Below are positions 407 to 5,706 of a stretch of DNA of 5,706 nt, one piece after another. Positions within the stretch are counted from its first letter, which is position 1. Each line of letters begins with the position of its first letter. Source of the DNA: Breznakia sp. PF5-3. GTDB taxonomy: Bacteria > Bacillota_I > Bacilli_A > Erysipelotrichales > Erysipelotrichaceae. The DNA lies in assembly GCF_029504745.1 (NCBI RefSeq), contig NZ_JAQFIQ010000069.1, forward strand, positions 1-5,706, read 5' to 3'. The notes below the pieces were generated by a model. That model ran no database searches. It saw nothing but the letters and a program-made list of their open reading frames with translations, and had not been told where the DNA came from. Both the position numbers and the translations under genes were made by a program.

Positions 407-2617
407 ATGTTTAAAAAATATCCGTGTGTTTTACAACATGATCATAATGATTGTGCAGCTGCGGCATTATCAACAATTCTATTAACATATGGAAGCGAAG
501 TGTCCATATTAGAAATTAGAGATAGTATAAAAACGGATTTAAATGGGACGACAGTAAAAGGAATCATAGAAGGACTTGAGAAGTTCAAATTCCAAACAAA
601 AGCTTTACGTACAGAGACACAGGAGCTGACTTTGGATATTACATTACCAGCGATTGCAATGGTGCACACTAGTAATAATCAAGAACATTTTGTTGTTCTA
701 CATAAAATTAAAAAGAATGATACTTTTATTATTGCAGATCCTGCGAAAGGTATTATTGAAAAAACACGTGAAGAATTTGATAAAATCTTTACAGGTGTTT
801 TTATTATGATGATACCAATGAGTGATTTTGAAAAAATGAAATTTTCTTCTGCAACGATGTATGAAGTATTCAAGAATTTGATTTTTCCTCATAAAGCATT
901 ACTGTTGCAAGTTATTTTAATATCGATGTTACTTAGTTTTTTAGGAATTTTTGTATCTTTGTTCTCAAAGGTATTGATGGACGAAATAATACCTTATCAA
1001 TTAAAGAATACACTTTATATCTATTTGCTATTTTTTATAATTGTAACACTATTTCAAAATATATTGTCTGCTTTTAGACAGCATATTTTGTTGTTCTTAG
1101 CGCGAAAGATAGATATCCCATTATTGCTTGGTTATTATCAACATATTTTACATTTGCCATATAAGTTTTTTGTATCACGAAGAATCGGTGATATTATTAC
1201 TCGTTTTCAAGACGCAAGTACGATTAAAGAGATCTTTACTAGCTTATCTATCTCTTTGGTTATGGATATAGTATTGGCAAGTGTCACATGTATTGTTTTA
1301 TTTAGTTTGAATAGTACTTTATTTTTGGTTTTAGCAATTATTGTTTTAATAAATATAGTTTTAATTTATGCTTTTAAAGGTTCATATAAAAAAATCAATT
1401 ATAAACAAATGGAGGCATCTTCTAGATTAAATTCTCAATTGATTGAATCTTTGAAAAATATTGAGACAATCAAAGCTCAAAATGATGAAAAAGCACAAAT
1501 GAATCACGTTGAAGAAAACTTAGTCACATCAGAGAAAATTGCATATCAAGAAGGACGATTGCAAAATCTACAATCATTCCTTTCAAATACATTAAATGCC
1601 ATTGGAAACTTGGTATTCATGGGAGTGGGAGCAATATTTATCATTGATGGAAATATGACAATTGGTGATTTATTGGTATTTCAAACATTAAGTCAGTATT
1701 TCATGGAACCAGTGCAAAGTCTTGTATCACTTCAATTATCATTTCAAGAAGCACATATTGCTATGCAAAGGTTGAGTGAATTGATGTCACTAAAGATAGA
1801 AAATGCAGAAAAAACACTTATTCATAAGATTTCTTTGAATGAGCAAATAAGGTTTTCTAATGTTACATTTGCATATGGGAATCGCATTCCAATATTAAAT
1901 AATTTTTCTTTGGTAATTCCACCAGGGAAAGCAATTGCTTTAATTGGCGAAAGTGGAGCTGGAAAGAGCACAATTATAAAATTATTATTGAAATTTTTGG
2001 AAGTGAATGAAGGCAAAATATCATTTGGAAAACATAATATTGTTGATATTGACACCTATACACTACGTCAGAAAATAGCATATATTCCACAAAATATTGA
2101 ATTGTTTACAGGGACAATTATTGATAATTTACAAGTTGGACATCCAGAGGCTCGGTATGAAGATATTATTTTGGCTTGCAAACAAGCTGGTGCTGATGAA
2201 TTTATTGATAATTTACCTGATCGATATATGACGTTCATTGAAGAAGGTGCTAGTAATTTATCTGGTGGCGAACAGCAAAGATTGGCACTAGCCAGAGCAT
2301 TGCTCGGCAATCCCGATTTATATGTGTTTGATGAAGTTACATCAAATTTGGATTCTTTTAGTGAACTTAGAATACATGAATTAATTTTTAAGAAATTGTA
2401 TAAAAAAACAAGAATTATTGTTGCTCACAGGTTATCAACAATCCGTAGCTGTGATGAAATTTATTTTATTAAGGATGGAGAAATAATTGAAAAGGGTTCA
2501 CATGATGAACTGATGAGATTAAATGGACAATACGCAAAGATGATTTCTCTGCAAGAATCATCACCCGAAAAATATAAGCCTAGAGAAGAAGTGATGGAGG
2601 AAATGGTATATGAGTAA
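407..2617 (+). CDS. Bacteriocin-processing and export ABC transporter with an N-terminal C39 double-glycine peptidase domain (LagD/LcnC/ComA/PedD-type)
   Basis: 736-aa ORF with GAAAGGGG 5 nt upstream of the ATG. The N-terminus has the C39 hallmarks: Q10, catalytic Cys16 in HNDCAAAAL (codon 452-454), His in QEHFVVLHK and Asp in IADPAKG. A six-TM-like hydrophobic core follows. NBD motifs are Walker A GESGAGKST (1946-1972), Q-loop YIPQN, signature LSGGEQQRLALARA (from 2258), Walker B LYVFDE and H-loop VAHRLST. Confidence 0.95.
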   Translation: MFKKYPCVLQHDHNDCAAAALSTILLTYGSEVSILEIRDSIKTDLNGTTVKGIIEGLEKFKFQTKALRTETQELTLDITLPAIAMVHTSNNQEHFVVLHKIKKNDTFIIADPAKGIIEKTREEFDKIFTGVFIMMIPMSDFEKMKFSSATMYEVFKNLIFPHKALLLQVILISMLLSFLGIFVSLFSKVLMDEIIPYQLKNTLYIYLLFFIIVTLFQNILSAFRQHILLFLARKIDIPLLLGYYQHILHLPYKFFVSRRIGDIITRFQDASTIKEIFTSLSISLVMDIVLASVTCIVLFSLNSTLFLVLAIIVLINIVLIYAFKGSYKKINYKQMEASSRLNSQLIESLKNIETIKAQNDEKAQMNHVEENLVTSEKIAYQEGRLQNLQSFLSNTLNAIGNLVFMGVGAIFIIDGNMTIGDLLVFQTLSQYFMEPVQSLVSLQLSFQEAHIAMQRLSELMSLKIENAEKTLIHKISLNEQIRFSNVTFAYGNRIPILNNFSLVIPPGKAIALIGESGAGKSTIIKLLLKFLEVNEGKISFGKHNIVDIDTYTLRQKIAYIPQNIELFTGTIIDNLQVGHPEARYEDIILACKQAGADEFIDNLPDRYMTFIEEGASNLSGGEQQRLALARALLGNPDLYVFDEVTSNLDSFSELRIHELIFKKLYKKTRIIVAHRLSTIRSCDEIYFIKDGEIIEKGSHDELMRLNGQYAKMISLQESSPEKYKPREEVMEEMVYE

Positions 2618-3092
2618 ATTGAATGTGTTAGAGAATAAATCATTGCTATTGAAACAGGTTGTAAAATGTGAAATACACAATATTTCGATTTATGAGTTTG
2701 ATAGAAAACTACAATTATTTATTCAACGGTTACAAACTATGAACGCTGATTTATTTGGTCCATTGGTTACCCATATGAAAGGGACGACATTTAATGAAAA
2801 AGGCGAAGTTAAAGCGGATTATGAAATTTTTGTACAAGCAAATAATTATTTAGATTTTAAAGATGAATTTATTGTAATGGATATGTTTCGATTTGATCAT
2901 TGTATTTGCTTACGATTTGAAGATCATCCAAAATATTTTGATTTAGCTCATCAAAAGTTGCAAGTGTATCTTTATGAACATGATTTAGACAGCTCTGGAT
3001 CGGTGATTACAGTGCTTATGGAAGAAAGTGAAGCAATGATAAAAGCAGATATTTTTATTCCCATAGTAGGAGTAGGGTATGAAGTTTCATAG
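2610..3092 (+). CDS. Soluble acidic 160-aa protein of unknown function, possibly a duplicated beta-alpha-beta-beta (GyrI-like/SHS2-type) ligand-binding fold
   Basis: GGAGG (2596-2600) lies 9 nt before ATG 2610. The start overlaps the ABC stop by 8 nt (ATGAGTAA) and the 3' end overlaps the HlyD start by 14 nt. There is no TM segment. The fold call rests only on my reading of the sequence pattern. Confidence 0.8.
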   Translation: MSKLNVLENKSLLLKQVVKCEIHNISIYEFDRKLQLFIQRLQTMNADLFGPLVTHMKGTTFNEKGEVKADYEIFVQANNYLDFKDEFIVMDMFRFDHCICLRFEDHPKYFDLAHQKLQVYLYEHDLDSSGSVITVLMEESEAMIKADIFIPIVGVGYEVS

Positions 3093-4311
3093 TAAAGAAG
3101 AATTACAATCATCAAGAATTTTCTTTGATAAAAATCCACCTAAATATATTTATTTGTTTGTGTTTTTGGTATGCCTTTTTATTGTTGTTTGTTTATGGTT
3201 TTCATTGTATGCAACAAAAACATATGTCGTGAAAGCAAATGGAGAGATTATTACTACAGATAATCAATATATTACGTCAAATGTAAATGGAACAGTGAGT
3301 GAAATACAAAAAGCAGAAGGAAGCCAAGTGAGAAAAGGGGATATTCTTTTTATTGCAAATAATGGAATAACGGGTGTACAAGGAGAAGCATTATTAGAGC
3401 AGCTTAACTTTGCAAAAGAAAAATTAGCTGCTATGGATTTGTTTGAGCGCTCGCTAAACGAAAAAACAAATTATTTGGAGAATGATGGTGTGCAACAGGA
3501 ATATTTTGGGAAAGTGGAATATTATTTATTGCAAGTTTACGAAGATGAAATTAATTTGCAGCAACAGCAAAAAGAATATGCAAAAAAGAGTGAAAAAATT
3601 GTAAATATAGAGAAGGAAATAGAGAATTTGCGCAAAAGCACGGCAGAAGATTCTCAAGATGAAATAATAAGTAAAAGCAGTGAAATAGAAACGTTGAATA
3701 ATGAATTGGATACATTGCAGTTGCAGATGAAAAGCACTTCACAAAACGATAAATTGCGTACACAATTTATATCTGAATTGGGTTCTTCGCGAACGCAAGT
3801 GGAAACACAGATAACGGAATTGGAAGGGAATCGATCTGCTTCTGTAAATGAAGATAAAACATTTATTGCGAAAGCACAGAACGATGGAATAGTGCATTAC
3901 AGAATTCCTATTAAATTAGGAATGAATGTACAAGTGAATCAGATTGTTGCTGAAGTAAGTAAAAATGATGAAAAGGACTATCTAGTAGAAGCATATGTTG
4001 ATGCTGCTGAAATATCAAAAATTTCTGAAAAGAATAGCGTAAATATATCAATTATCGGTGTAAATACGCAGATATACGGTGATTTGAAAGGTGAAATTAT
4101 TTCTATTGATAATGGAACAATCACACAAGAAACTCAAGATGGAACGATATTGGTATATCGTTGTTTGATTCGTTTAGAACAAACGAAACTGAATGGAAAA
4201 GACGATACTTATATACAAGCAATGAAATCAATGCCAGTGGAGGTGCAGATCATTTATGATAATGAAAGTTATCTAGACTGGATTTTAGAATTATTGAGTT
4301 TTAAAAGTTAA
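3079..4311 (+). CDS. HlyD-family bacteriocin secretion accessory (membrane fusion) protein
   Basis: 410 aa, with AGGAG (3068-3072) 6 nt before the ATG. It has a single N-terminal TM (YIYLFVFLVCLFIVVCLWFSLYA) and a lipoyl-like hairpin motif (VVKANGEI...NGTVSEIQKAEGSQVRKGDILF). A long E/K/Q-rich coiled-coil region and a beta-rich C-terminus follow. It lies directly after a C39-ABC gene, the classic pairing. Confidence 0.9.
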   Translation: MKFHSKEELQSSRIFFDKNPPKYIYLFVFLVCLFIVVCLWFSLYATKTYVVKANGEIITTDNQYITSNVNGTVSEIQKAEGSQVRKGDILFIANNGITGVQGEALLEQLNFAKEKLAAMDLFERSLNEKTNYLENDGVQQEYFGKVEYYLLQVYEDEINLQQQQKEYAKKSEKIVNIEKEIENLRKSTAEDSQDEIISKSSEIETLNNELDTLQLQMKSTSQNDKLRTQFISELGSSRTQVETQITELEGNRSASVNEDKTFIAKAQNDGIVHYRIPIKLGMNVQVNQIVAEVSKNDEKDYLVEAYVDAAEISKISEKNSVNISIIGVNTQIYGDLKGEIISIDNGTITQETQDGTILVYRCLIRLEQTKLNGKDDTYIQAMKSMPVEVQIIYDNESYLDWILELLSFKS

Positions 4312-4322
4312 CATGTTATAAA
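4294..4322 (+). promoter_or_regulatory. Candidate extended -10 promoter for the first peptide gene
   Basis: TTGAGT (4294-4299), a 17-nt spacer, then TATAAA (4317-4322) preceded by TGt (4314-4316), giving a TGnTATAAA extended -10. It lies in the last codons of the HlyD gene and the intergenic region. Confidence 0.4.
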
Positions 4323-4366
4323 ATGAATACAGCTGATCATTTTATATATAGGAAAGGAGGAAGATT

Positions 4367-4654
4367 ATGGAACTAATTATGCCAAATAACAGTTTGGAAA
4401 TGAATGCGAATGAAATGGCATATGTTGATGGAAGTTGGAAACTTTATACAAATTGGTGGGGCTTATGCTTAAAGCTAACTAAGAATGAATGTTCAAAAAT
4501 AGCACTTGGTACAAGAGCTGCTAGCCTTATAACGGGAAATCCAACTGCATTAGCATTAGCTAAAGCGTTCTCTTGGGCAGCTAGCTGGGGTGCAGCTAAC
4601 AATGGCTTATACATTAATAAGACATGGACTGGATACGGCTGGGTATCTTGGTAA
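4367..4654 (+). CDS. Bacteriocin precursor candidate (95 aa) with a leader peptide and a Trp-rich cationic core
   Basis: GGAGG (4356-4360) lies 6 nt before the ATG. The N-terminus MELIMPNNSLEMNANEMAYVDG/S resembles a double-glycine-type leader (hydrophobic/E periodicity ending in Gly). The core of about 72-73 aa has 2 Cys, net charge about +6 and an Ala/Gly/Ser-rich hydrophobic centre. The gene sits immediately after the C39-ABC/HlyD genes. Confidence 0.8.
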   Translation: MELIMPNNSLEMNANEMAYVDGSWKLYTNWWGLCLKLTKNECSKIALGTRAASLITGNPTALALAKAFSWAASWGAANNGLYINKTWTGYGWVSW

Positions 4655-4664
4655 ATAGATAATC

Positions 4665-4835
4665 ATGAAAAATAAAATTTTATTTGTAAGTAGAGTAATG
4701 ACAACATTGGCAATGCTTATAATAGTGATATTTGAAATGATATACGATGTGCATTATGATTGGATATGGTTTGTGTTACTTATTCTATTGTCAATTGAGT
4801 TATGTTTAGAGATTATCAAAGAAAGGTGTTCTTGA
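4665..4835 (+). CDS. Small hydrophobic two-TM protein (56 aa), candidate cognate immunity protein; not in the supplied ORF track
   Basis: Hand translation gives MKNKILFVSRVMTTLAMLIIVIFEMIYDVHYDWIWFVLLILLSIELCLEIIKERCS, ending at TGA 4833-4835. The ATG lies 10 nt after the peptide gene stop. There is no clear SD, so coupling or reinitiation is possible. The terminator overlaps its 3' end. This is the classic position for a class II bacteriocin immunity gene. Confidence 0.55.
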   Translation: MKNKILFVSRVMTTLAMLIIVIFEMIYDVHYDWIWFVLLILLSIELCLEIIKERCS

Positions 4836-4853
4836 AAAGAACACTTTTCTTTT
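4824..4853 (+). terminator. Rho-independent terminator
   Basis: Stem gtgttctt (4826-4833) / aagaacac (4837-4844), extendable by a G:T and an A:T pair, followed by TTTTCTTTT (4845-4853). Confidence 0.75.
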
Positions 4854-4919
4854 AGGGAAATAGGCAGACAATATGAATTTAAAAGTAGAATATCTTGAAT
4901 ATTCAATTATGAAAGGAGA

Positions 4920-5258
4920 ATGGAATTGGAATTCATATTACCGAAAGTATGCGTTGAATTACAAACTGATGAAATTGTTGGGAAAGGTTATTGGACTCAT
5001 GTTAGAAATGCAGAATGGACATGGACTTTTACCAAAAGAGATTGTGCCAATATTTCTTGGATTATGAGCGCGGGAGCGAGTATCGCATCTGCAGTGGGGT
5101 ACTTTTGCCCACAAGTAGCCCCATATGCAAGTGTATTAGCATCAGCATTGGGGTTTGGATCTAAACTATTTAGTAATGGAGCTAAATATAATGGAATCCG
5201 TGTTTATTTCCACACAATGTGGTGGGGAAGAACGCCTCGGTGGGCGCAGTATATTTAG
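4920..5258 (+). CDS. Second bacteriocin precursor candidate (112 aa), paralogue of the 4367-4654 product
   Basis: By-eye alignment to the first peptide shows shared blocks. The leaders share P-x3-[LV]E[ML]-x3-E[MI][AV]. The cores share G-x-W-x4-N, [LF]TK[NR][ED]C-x2-I, an A/S/G-rich hydrophobic centre, NG[LI] and a Trp-rich C-terminus. Net charge is about +6. The start is uncertain: ATG 4920 lies only 1 nt after GGAG (4915-4918), while in-frame TTG 4926 has a 7-nt spacing. Confidence 0.75.
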   Translation: MELEFILPKVCVELQTDEIVGKGYWTHVRNAEWTWTFTKRDCANISWIMSAGASIASAVGYFCPQVAPYASVLASALGFGSKLFSNGAKYNGIRVYFHTMWWGRTPRWAQYI

Positions 5259-5322: not shown

Positions 5323-5351
5323 TTGACAAGATAAAAAAATATGCTTATAAT
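5323..5351 (+). promoter_or_regulatory. Consensus sigma-A promoter driving the T-box leader
   Basis: TTGACA (5323-5328), an exact 17-nt spacer, then TATAAT (5346-5351). Confidence 0.8.
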
Positions 5352-5367
5352 TACAACAATACAAAAA

Positions 5368-5619
5368 GACAGTGATAAGAACTAGTAAAGATATGGATTT
5401 TATAGAGACTTCTTGGTTGGTGGAAAAGAAGATATGAAGTATCTTGAACACATCTTTGAGTCATAAAGGTGAAATGAGTAATCTTTATCGGTTTCCTTGC
5501 ATCCGTTATCATGCTAGAGTATGTTAGTACTTGAAGAGGTTGGTATTGTGAAATACTGATAAAAAAAGGTGGAACCACGTGAGCTAAGACTTTCGTCCTT
5601 TGGATGAAAGTCTTTTTTT
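5368..5619 (+). promoter_or_regulatory. T-box riboswitch leader with specifier codon CAC (His)
   Basis: Stem I has base gac/gtc, a K-turn-like gtgat...tgag, and AGAGA (5404-5408). The distal helix is cttctt/aagaag with a ggttggtggaaa loop. An AGTA box lies in gaagta (5437-5440). The specifier loop GAA-CAC-A has the codon at 5449-5451, analogous to GAA-GGC-A in glyQS. Stem II carries gagtaa, and the F-box CCGTTA is at 5503-5508. Stem III is gtatt/aatac. The T-box reads AAAGGTGGAACCACGTG (5565-5581) with a 7-nt bulge UGGAACC. Antiterminator helices aaagg/ccttt and acg/cgt compete with the terminator. Confidence 0.85.
5586..5619 (+). terminator. T-box attenuator terminator
   Basis: A 13-bp stem aagactttcgtcc (5586-5598) / ggatgaaagtctt (5602-5614) with one G:T pair, running into a 7-T run that ends at 5619. 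Its 5' arm overlaps the 3' arm of the antiterminator. Confidence 0.85.
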
Positions 5620-5620
5620 G

Positions 5621-5706
5621 GTGTGCTAGGCATGGCATATATCTAGTGGTGAAAGTCCACTGTGGGGGGTGTAGTCGCTAACCCGTAGCCGAAGACAAGG
5701 GTGTCC
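5621..5706 (+). mobile_element. Group II intron, class C (IIC), 5' end of domain I; truncated by the window edge
   Basis: It starts with GUGUG (the GUGYG consensus) at 5621. From memory, it matches the 5' end of the Oceanobacillus iheyensis group IIC intron block by block: GTGTGC (5621-5626), GGCATGG (5629-5635), GGTGAAAGTCC (5648-5658, versus GGUGAGAGUCC), TAGCC (5686-5690) and CAAGGGTGTCC (5696-5706). It sits 1 nt after a terminator T-run, the characteristic IIC insertion site. Confidence 0.8.

Follow-up and report, generated by a model that had tools for sequence, protein, structure and literature searches.

The question raised by this locus is whether the bases that follow the terminator of a T-box leader, at the end of a 5,706-nt stretch of Breznakia sp. 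PF5-3 DNA (the window), belong to a mobile ribozyme, and what such a neighbor would mean for the riboswitch and for the genes under its control. An initial annotation of the window proposed a group IIC intron between the riboswitch and its gene. The analyses described here make it very likely that a IIC retroelement was inserted in the 5' UTR of the his operon in Breznakia sp. PF5-3-type strains, in sense orientation, with a single base between it and the T-run of the T-box(His) terminator on one side and 20 nt to the hisZ start on the other. The features of the window that bear on this reading are listed in Table 1.

Table 1. Features of the window, with positions counted from its first base
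Feature	Position	Strand	Basis or remark
C39-peptidase ABC transporter	407-2617
160-aa ORF	2610-3092		no Pfam match
AprE/HlyD-like beta-barrel protein	3079-4311
Small ORF, 95 aa	4367-4654		no Pfam match
Small ORF, 112 aa	4920-5258		no Pfam match
Putative sigma-70-type promoter of the his leader, TTGACA-17 nt-TATAAT	5323..5351	+	12/12 consensus positions; consensus match only
T-box leader RNA, tRNA-His-specific	5363..5603	+	Rfam RF00230, 119.8 bits (gathering score 93), E 5e-27
Specifier codon CAC (His), Stem I specifier loop, context GAA-CAC-A	5449..5451	+	Rfam alignment and motif search
T-box core AAAGGUGGAACCACG, antiterminator bulge pairing with the tRNA acceptor end	5565..5579	+	Rfam and motif search
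T-box intrinsic terminator, 13-bp stem 5586-5614 and T-run to 5619	5586..5619	+
Last 5' exon bases TTTG, presumed IBS1	5617..5620	+	position only
Putative class C group II intron, first 86 nt (5' GUGUG and proximal domain I), ending with the contig	5621..5706	+	custom covariance model, homology to intron 5' ends

The T-box leader and its terminator

The leader carries the full T-box set of Stem I, core and terminator-antiterminator, with the 3' side of the antiterminator overlapped by the terminator, and its alignment to RF00230 spans model positions 1-219. Since the specifier is CAC, the leader is expected to sense tRNA-His. The GAA-CAC-A context was invariant across four aligned leaders from four lineages, including that of the window, which had a mean identity of 88%. 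The regulated gene matches the specifier, as the operon downstream is hisZGDCBHAFIE in the orthologous loci that lack the intron as well as on the PF5-3-type hisZ contig. The histidine specificity that had been assigned to the leader in the initial annotation is thus borne out by both the specifier context and the operon downstream.

The terminator folds with -16.6 kcal/mol as RNA and -9.9 as DNA. The promoter hexamers were conserved in the intron-less orthologues included in the leader alignment, and no second promoter-like site was found on the + strand between positions 5351 and 5706.

Two side observations concern the leader region. The variable base of the T-box UGGN motif (window 5573; ~15832 in the B. 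pachnodae-like contig L007) is A in the window and in two further lineages (L092 and L094), and C in L007. This base normally covaries with the discriminator base of the tRNA, and bacterial tRNA-His usually has the discriminator C73. Neither A nor C pairs with the usual C73, and the G-1:C73 pair peculiar to tRNA-His may lie behind this mismatch. Additionally, an ATG-initiated ORF of 95 aa on the minus strand (5351-5638), antisense to the whole T-box and to the intron junction, was considered and rejected as a gene. It is a by-product of ORF listing and almost certainly spurious, yet gene callers could annotate it.

The 5' end of the putative intron

A single G at position 5620 separates the T-run from GTGTG at 5621-5625, one base after the T-run, and from 5621 the sequence reads GTGTGCTAGGCATGG...GGTGAAAGTCC...CAAGGGTGTCC up to the window end. 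The GTGTG pentamer by itself carries no weight, but the full 86 nt, judged by their similarity to known introns, are far from chance. They align at ~75-78% identity with the starts of group II introns carried by Lactobacillaceae plasmids, and elements on 55 plasmids were aligned in all. In a Ligilactobacillus salivarius plasmid intron (L001; 1,906 nt), an RT/maturase is annotated ~460 nt downstream of the aligned start, and Rfam matches were obtained for D1D4-3 (135.5 bits), D1D4-1 (69 bits) and domain V/VI (48.2 bits). The junction of the related L. salivarius intron is similar, with TGTG before and TATA after the intron.

A covariance model was built from the aligned first ~87 nt of 31 related introns, with the window left out. 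These introns came from 80 metagenome loci encoding related RTs, in which the intron starts were then located, and the consensus fold of the 31 starts showed compensatory changes in 12 of its 16 pairs. Searched in 114 kb, the model matched the window with 57.2 bits (E ~7.5e-12) over model positions 1-87, starting exactly at 5621, and gave no match in the intron-less relatives. The coordinates proposed in the initial annotation, with a T-run ending at 5619 and an intron GUGUG at 5621 right behind the T-box terminator, are therefore exact, and both elements are recognised by covariance models (119.8 bits for the T-box and 57.2 bits for the intron).

Rfam returned no group II match after 5620, including when the last 400 nt were searched at permissive thresholds (E up to 10). 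This blank is uninformative and is no evidence against an intron, because the D1D4-3 model begins ~84 nt inside such introns (as measured in L001, and equivalent to window position 5705), which is where the window stops. More generally, the Rfam group II D1-D4 models omit the first ~84 nt of class C introns (window 5621-5706; L001 3009-3093), and class C intron fragments at contig ends consequently escape Rfam annotation. Such fragments are common at contig ends since these introns are repeats.

Searches for exact copies covered several other collections. The 86-mer of the intron start and a 24-mer of the T-box had no exact match in the GTDB representative genomes; evidently the species representative is either without these exact sequences or missing there. 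The whole window gave no match by megablast against plasmids and phages, and exact scans of viral contigs found none of the intron ends.

Intron-less orthologous loci

The gene order of the locus is shared by three B. pachnodae-like contigs (L007, L008 and L009), which encode GntR, then a 54-aa ORF and the C39-peptidase ABC transporter, and after these a 152-aa ORF, the AprE-like protein and a 111-aa ORF. A spacer of ~390-460 nt comes next, and then hisZ-hisG-hisD-hisC-hisB-hisH, with no intron. In this spacer lie the orthologues of the promoter and the T-box, with 86% identity over 296 nt, and the T-box of L009 scored 133.8 bits. In the intron-less locus the terminator is directly followed by ...TTTTTTTGTTTATTATAAGGAGGAAACAACAATG, where hisZ starts. 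Two further lineages (L092 and L094) have a T-box (130 bits each) directly before hisZ, also without an intron. Upstream of it, the AprE-like protein and the small ORFs are kept in L094, and an LRR protein is found in L092.

Because these related lineages carry the T-box directly before the his operon and nothing that matches the sequence after 5620, the intron-less state is ancestral and the insertion derived. The same comparison addresses the possibility, raised with the initial annotation, that the bases after 5620 are ordinary leader or coding sequence: they have no counterpart in the relatives, which speaks against it.

The genes upstream of the leader deserve a separate comment. Positions 407-5258 resemble a bacteriocin-type export cluster, whose 95-aa and 112-aa ORFs look like paralogues and are candidate exported peptides. 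This cluster is syntenic but strongly diverged in the B. pachnodae-like contigs. The promoter and leader (5323-5618) are the sole part of the window with similarity detectable by blastn (86%) to L007, L008 and L009. The protein genes around the leader have diverged past detection at the DNA level in these contigs, so that the non-coding leader is the best-conserved DNA of the locus.

The hisZ contig and the 3' end of the intron

HisZ of Breznakia sp. PF5-3 (P0125) is encoded on contig JAQFIS010000055.1 (L011) of the sibling assembly GCA_029504795.1. This contig begins 113 nt upstream of the hisZ ATG, and positions 17-93 correspond to group II domains V/VI (Rfam Intron_gpII, 48.1 bits; gathering score 40), which differ very little from the 3' end of the ORF-carrying L. 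salivarius intron. Domain VI has a bulged UA 7-8 nt from the 3' end. The initial annotation had expected domains V/VI with an AGC triad and a bulged A further downstream. The domains and the bulged A were indeed found, while the domain V triad is CGC, the usual class C form.

The intron ends with ...CUACUCGAU at position 93 of this contig, where the 3' exon begins (...CUACUCGAU followed by UAUAUUAGGAGGUAUAAAAGAUG). The 3' exon reads UAUAUUAGGAGGUAUAAAAG and is followed by the AUG at 114, which places an AGGAGG ribosome-binding site 7 nt and the hisZ ATG 20 nt after the intron, both within the 3' exon. The his operon on the contig is intact (hisZGDCBHAF, PRA-CH, PRA-PH and PHP phosphatase). Joining the window sequence ...GTCTTTTTTTG (to 5620) to the hisZ contig from position 94 reproduces the empty-site layout of the relatives, and the spliced exon junction is predicted as ...GUCUUUUUUUG^UAUAUUAGGAGG.

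The synteny and the complementary intron halves suggest that the end of the window contig and the start of the hisZ contig are neighbors. Considering that bridging sequence is lacking and that such repeats can mediate rearrangements, the T-box might alternatively be followed by one copy of the intron and then by other DNA, with hisZ behind another copy, for example after recombination, which would take the his operon out of T-box control. This is exceedingly unlikely, as the synteny between leader and hisZ is kept in every related lineage, the 20-nt 3' exon with its ribosome-binding site fits the empty-site layout, and hisZ would be left without a leader and the T-box without a gene. With the two contigs read as neighbors, the intron-less orthologous loci and a sibling hisZ contig that starts with domains V/VI agree with the initial annotation in placing the intron between the riboswitch and its gene.

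Several assemblies are interrupted at the intron. The NCBI contig JAQFIR010000054.1 (L006) shares 99.8% identity with the window and stops at the identical base, with 86 nt of intron. Two Logan contigs (L003 and L004) end 21 nt into the intron, and protein look-ups indicated that contigs sharing the proteins of the window also break there. A GntR protein encoded just upstream has 100% identity to one annotated in Breznakia sp. PF5-3 (Erysipelotrichaceae), and this match identified organism and locus. Since the borders of the intron interrupt four assemblies, two from NCBI and two from Logan, the intron is probably present in multiple copies in the genome. By analogy with its relatives, the gap would hold a full intron of ~1.9 kb with an RT; many related introns assemble as contigs of ~1.9 kb, and the first 16 nt of the hisZ contig resemble the end of an ORF.

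A different content of the gap was considered, in which the intron bounded by the 86-nt 5' piece and the 93-nt 3' piece has lost internal sequence or its ORF, or has otherwise decayed, and no longer splices or moves. The intron interior is indeed unassembled in the contigs found, and none of the best 120 matches to the L. salivarius RT is annotated as Breznakia; the C-terminus implied by positions 1-16 of the hisZ contig is likewise absent among these 120 matches. Nonetheless, such a dead remnant is unlikely, given that both ends are intact and match their models over the full length and that domains V/VI hardly differ from those of an intron that carries its ORF. Furthermore, the assemblies of four data sets break precisely at both borders, as would be expected of a multi-copy and hence recently active repeat, whereas a unique remnant would have been assembled through. 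A full intron thus remains the preferred reading of the gap.

Class assignment and intron relatives

The RT of the L. salivarius intron is closest to solved IIC RTs, namely the GsI-IIC RT (6ar1; 1e-120) and 7uim_D (2e-114), followed among full-length intron maturases by LtrA (5g2x; 5e-45), which we take to be class IIA, and 6me0 (2e-37). In related introns whose ends are homologous, the RT/maturase ORFs are 452-466 aa long. The 31 relatives with a GTGYG start were all located 6-10 nt behind a GC-rich hairpin and T-run, and two plasmid comparator introns likewise lie just behind such a structure. Class C introns belong to an RT lineage without an endonuclease domain, and they use a very short EBS1-IBS1 pairing together with EBS3-IBS3 and no EBS2. 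Their insertion adjoining terminators is well established and has been described in the literature (PMC9481103). Altogether, the insertion site and the RNA homology of both ends to introns with class C RTs suggest that the intron of the window is of class C.

The relatives also showed some variation of their own. Among 38 intron starts examined, seven were not GTGYG (L014, L022, L031, L062, L070, L071 and L077); five of these appear to be GTTCG, GTACG or ATCG, yet they are still found behind a hairpin and T-run. Head-to-tail tandem copies of related IIC introns were observed in L040 (starts at 522 and 2393), L100 (478 and 2371) and L104 (802-871, then 955), where the second start falls within a few tens of nt of the first domain VI, as if the introns' own 3' hairpins had served as the target.

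Expected consequences of the insertion for the his operon and for the intron

The ribonucleoprotein (RNP) of IIC introns recognises a terminator-type stem-loop in single-stranded DNA, along with a 3-4-nt IBS1 and a 1-nt IBS3, and the intron reverse-splices just downstream. From this known behavior, the terminator at 5586..5619 is presumably the DNA hairpin that was recognised by the intron. Because a IIC RNP cannot distinguish an attenuator from an end-of-gene terminator, the T-box terminator would be just one more eligible target.

The T-box decision is expected to be unchanged by the insertion, since it falls at 5586-5619 and thus precedes transcription of the intron. Upon read-through in the presence of uncharged tRNA-His, the polymerase would cross the intron (~1.9 kb, by analogy with relatives) and proceed into hisZGDCBHAFIE, and splicing would restore the ancestral leader. 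The initial annotation had gone further in stating that the regulated mRNA must splice or the gene would be separated from its leader. This does not follow, because the T-box acts co-transcriptionally at its own complete upstream terminator, and the ribosome-binding site and ATG of hisZ are both in the 3' exon. Splicing is thus not formally required, and an unspliced read-through RNA could in principle be regulated and translated. As this unspliced RNA retains the hisZ ribosome-binding site and ATG, the insertion was probably largely neutral for the host. The description of a mobile ribozyme "nested inside" a regulatory RNA was also too strong, as the intron comes after a complete leader.

Transcription of the intron from the host promoter would become dependent on histidine starvation. 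That the intron is transcribed only upon tRNA-dependent read-through, as had been proposed, is a reasonable and plausible reading of the sole upstream promoter-like site, and an intron-internal promoter or leaky termination could uncouple intron expression from the T-box. Because this sole upstream site is gated by the T-box, the intron might even act as a histidine-starvation-inducible mobile element, with its RNA and RT abundant only upon antitermination by uncharged tRNA-His, and as a ~1.9-kb ribozyme that reshapes his output through splicing efficiency, RNA stability or polarity. We consider this extended role possible but rather doubtful. If true, it would represent a natural mobile ribozyme licensed by a tRNA-sensing riboswitch.

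A still closer relationship between the two RNAs would be a functional composite, in which splicing or folding is allosterically coupled to tRNA-His sensing, in the manner of the Clostridioides difficile c-di-GMP-II/group I tandem, or in which the host has co-opted the intron as an extra layer of his control. The strict adjacency of T-box and intron (1-nt gap, same orientation, same transcription unit) and an insertion common to strains differing by 0.2% across the locus are compatible with this idea. It is nevertheless very improbable, since the T-box has its own complete terminator/antiterminator platform, which is conserved unaltered in four contigs that lack the intron, there is no overlap between leader and intron, and the intron is missing from every other Breznakia-like lineage examined. 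The relatives of the intron are found behind ordinary terminators, and Breaker's group, for the same reason, judged the same arrangement behind a SAM-I riboswitch as unlikely to be functional (PMC9481103). The locus was separately compared with the definition of an allosteric riboswitch-ribozyme, in which the sensor lacks a separate expression platform and its helices are shared with the splice sites of the ribozyme; this candidate was rejected, the T-box terminator being complete and conserved.

Insertion of a IIC retroelement behind an independent T-box, the reading favored here, provides a clean natural example of a class C intron with a regulatory attenuator as its landing pad, for which sister lineages offer empty sites and the exon junctions are exact. 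It illustrates that the strategy of a "safe harbor behind terminators" can bring an intron into a 5' UTR that is under regulation, where the host-driven transcription of the retroelement would then be linked to amino-acid starvation. Strains of the intron-bearing PF5-3 type and intron-less relatives such as B. pachnodae could serve as a system for studying neutrality to operon control and stress-gated mobility.

Comparison with known systems

Class C introns behind intrinsic terminators include B.h.I1 of Bacillus halodurans, GsI-IIC of Geobacillus and the IIC intron of Eubacterium rectale. The PF5-3 intron shares with the known class C introns a GUGYG start 6-8 nt behind a terminator hairpin and T-run, the sense orientation, a conserved 5' domain I structure, and domains V/VI with a CGC triad and bulged A, and the RTs of its nearest relatives are closest to solved IIC RTs. 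In contrast to these introns, which follow end-of-gene terminators, it follows the conditional terminator of a T-box that precedes an operon, and is thereby located in a 5' UTR and in a regulated transcription unit.

To place this arrangement among its relatives, 60 related IIC loci were surveyed, many of them on soil or wetland metagenome contigs and some with flanks of only 150-300 nt. No Rfam cis-regulatory RNA was found upstream of the intron in any of the 60, and one locus follows a tRNA gene. An IIC intron behind a regulatory RNA is uncommon in this heterogeneous sample, whose flanks are often short, and it is not unprecedented. In contig L021, a related intron (~393) is situated just behind a tRNA gene (277-350) and its terminator hairpin.

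The leader itself belongs to a pattern that is known in Firmicutes, the Erysipelotrichaceae included. Ashniev et al. 2022 (PMC9413887) reported a T-box(His) directly 5' of the his operon in 7 of the 13 genomes of prototrophic Erysipelotrichaceae, and the intron-less Breznakia-like loci match this pattern, whereas in the PF5-3 lineage a retroelement has come between leader and hisZ.

Ligand-sensing RNAs beside self-splicing introns in one 5' UTR are known from the c-di-GMP-II/group I tandem of C. difficile (Lee et al. 2010; Chen et al. 2011), a likeness that the PF5-3 locus shares. According to the summary of that system in PMC9481103, its aptamer is without a platform of its own and directs splice-site choice through shared helices. 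The PF5-3 locus differs from the tandem, as so summarised, in having a complete T-box that is independent of the intron, and an intron that is a mobile group II element and that relatives lack.

In a close counterpart, a SAM-I aptamer with an uninterrupted terminator precedes a group IIC ribozyme (Sherlock et al. 2022, RNA Biol 19:1059; PMC9481103). Its authors regarded this tandem as a probable false positive due to selfish insertion of IIC introns beside terminators, and not as an allosteric ribozyme. A full-text literature search for group II introns together with T-boxes or attenuators retrieved no other description besides this SAM-I case. The PF5-3 locus is a well-documented new instance of known IIC behavior of which an equivalent has already been reported, and it changes little in the general picture, since it follows from a known targeting rule and the SAM-I case is on record. 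In both loci a IIC intron is located immediately behind a riboswitch that has its own intact terminator. They differ in the sensor, a SAM aptamer in one and a tRNA-sensing T-box in the other, and for the PF5-3 case the operon under control, the empty sites in relatives and the exact junctions of the exons are documented as well.
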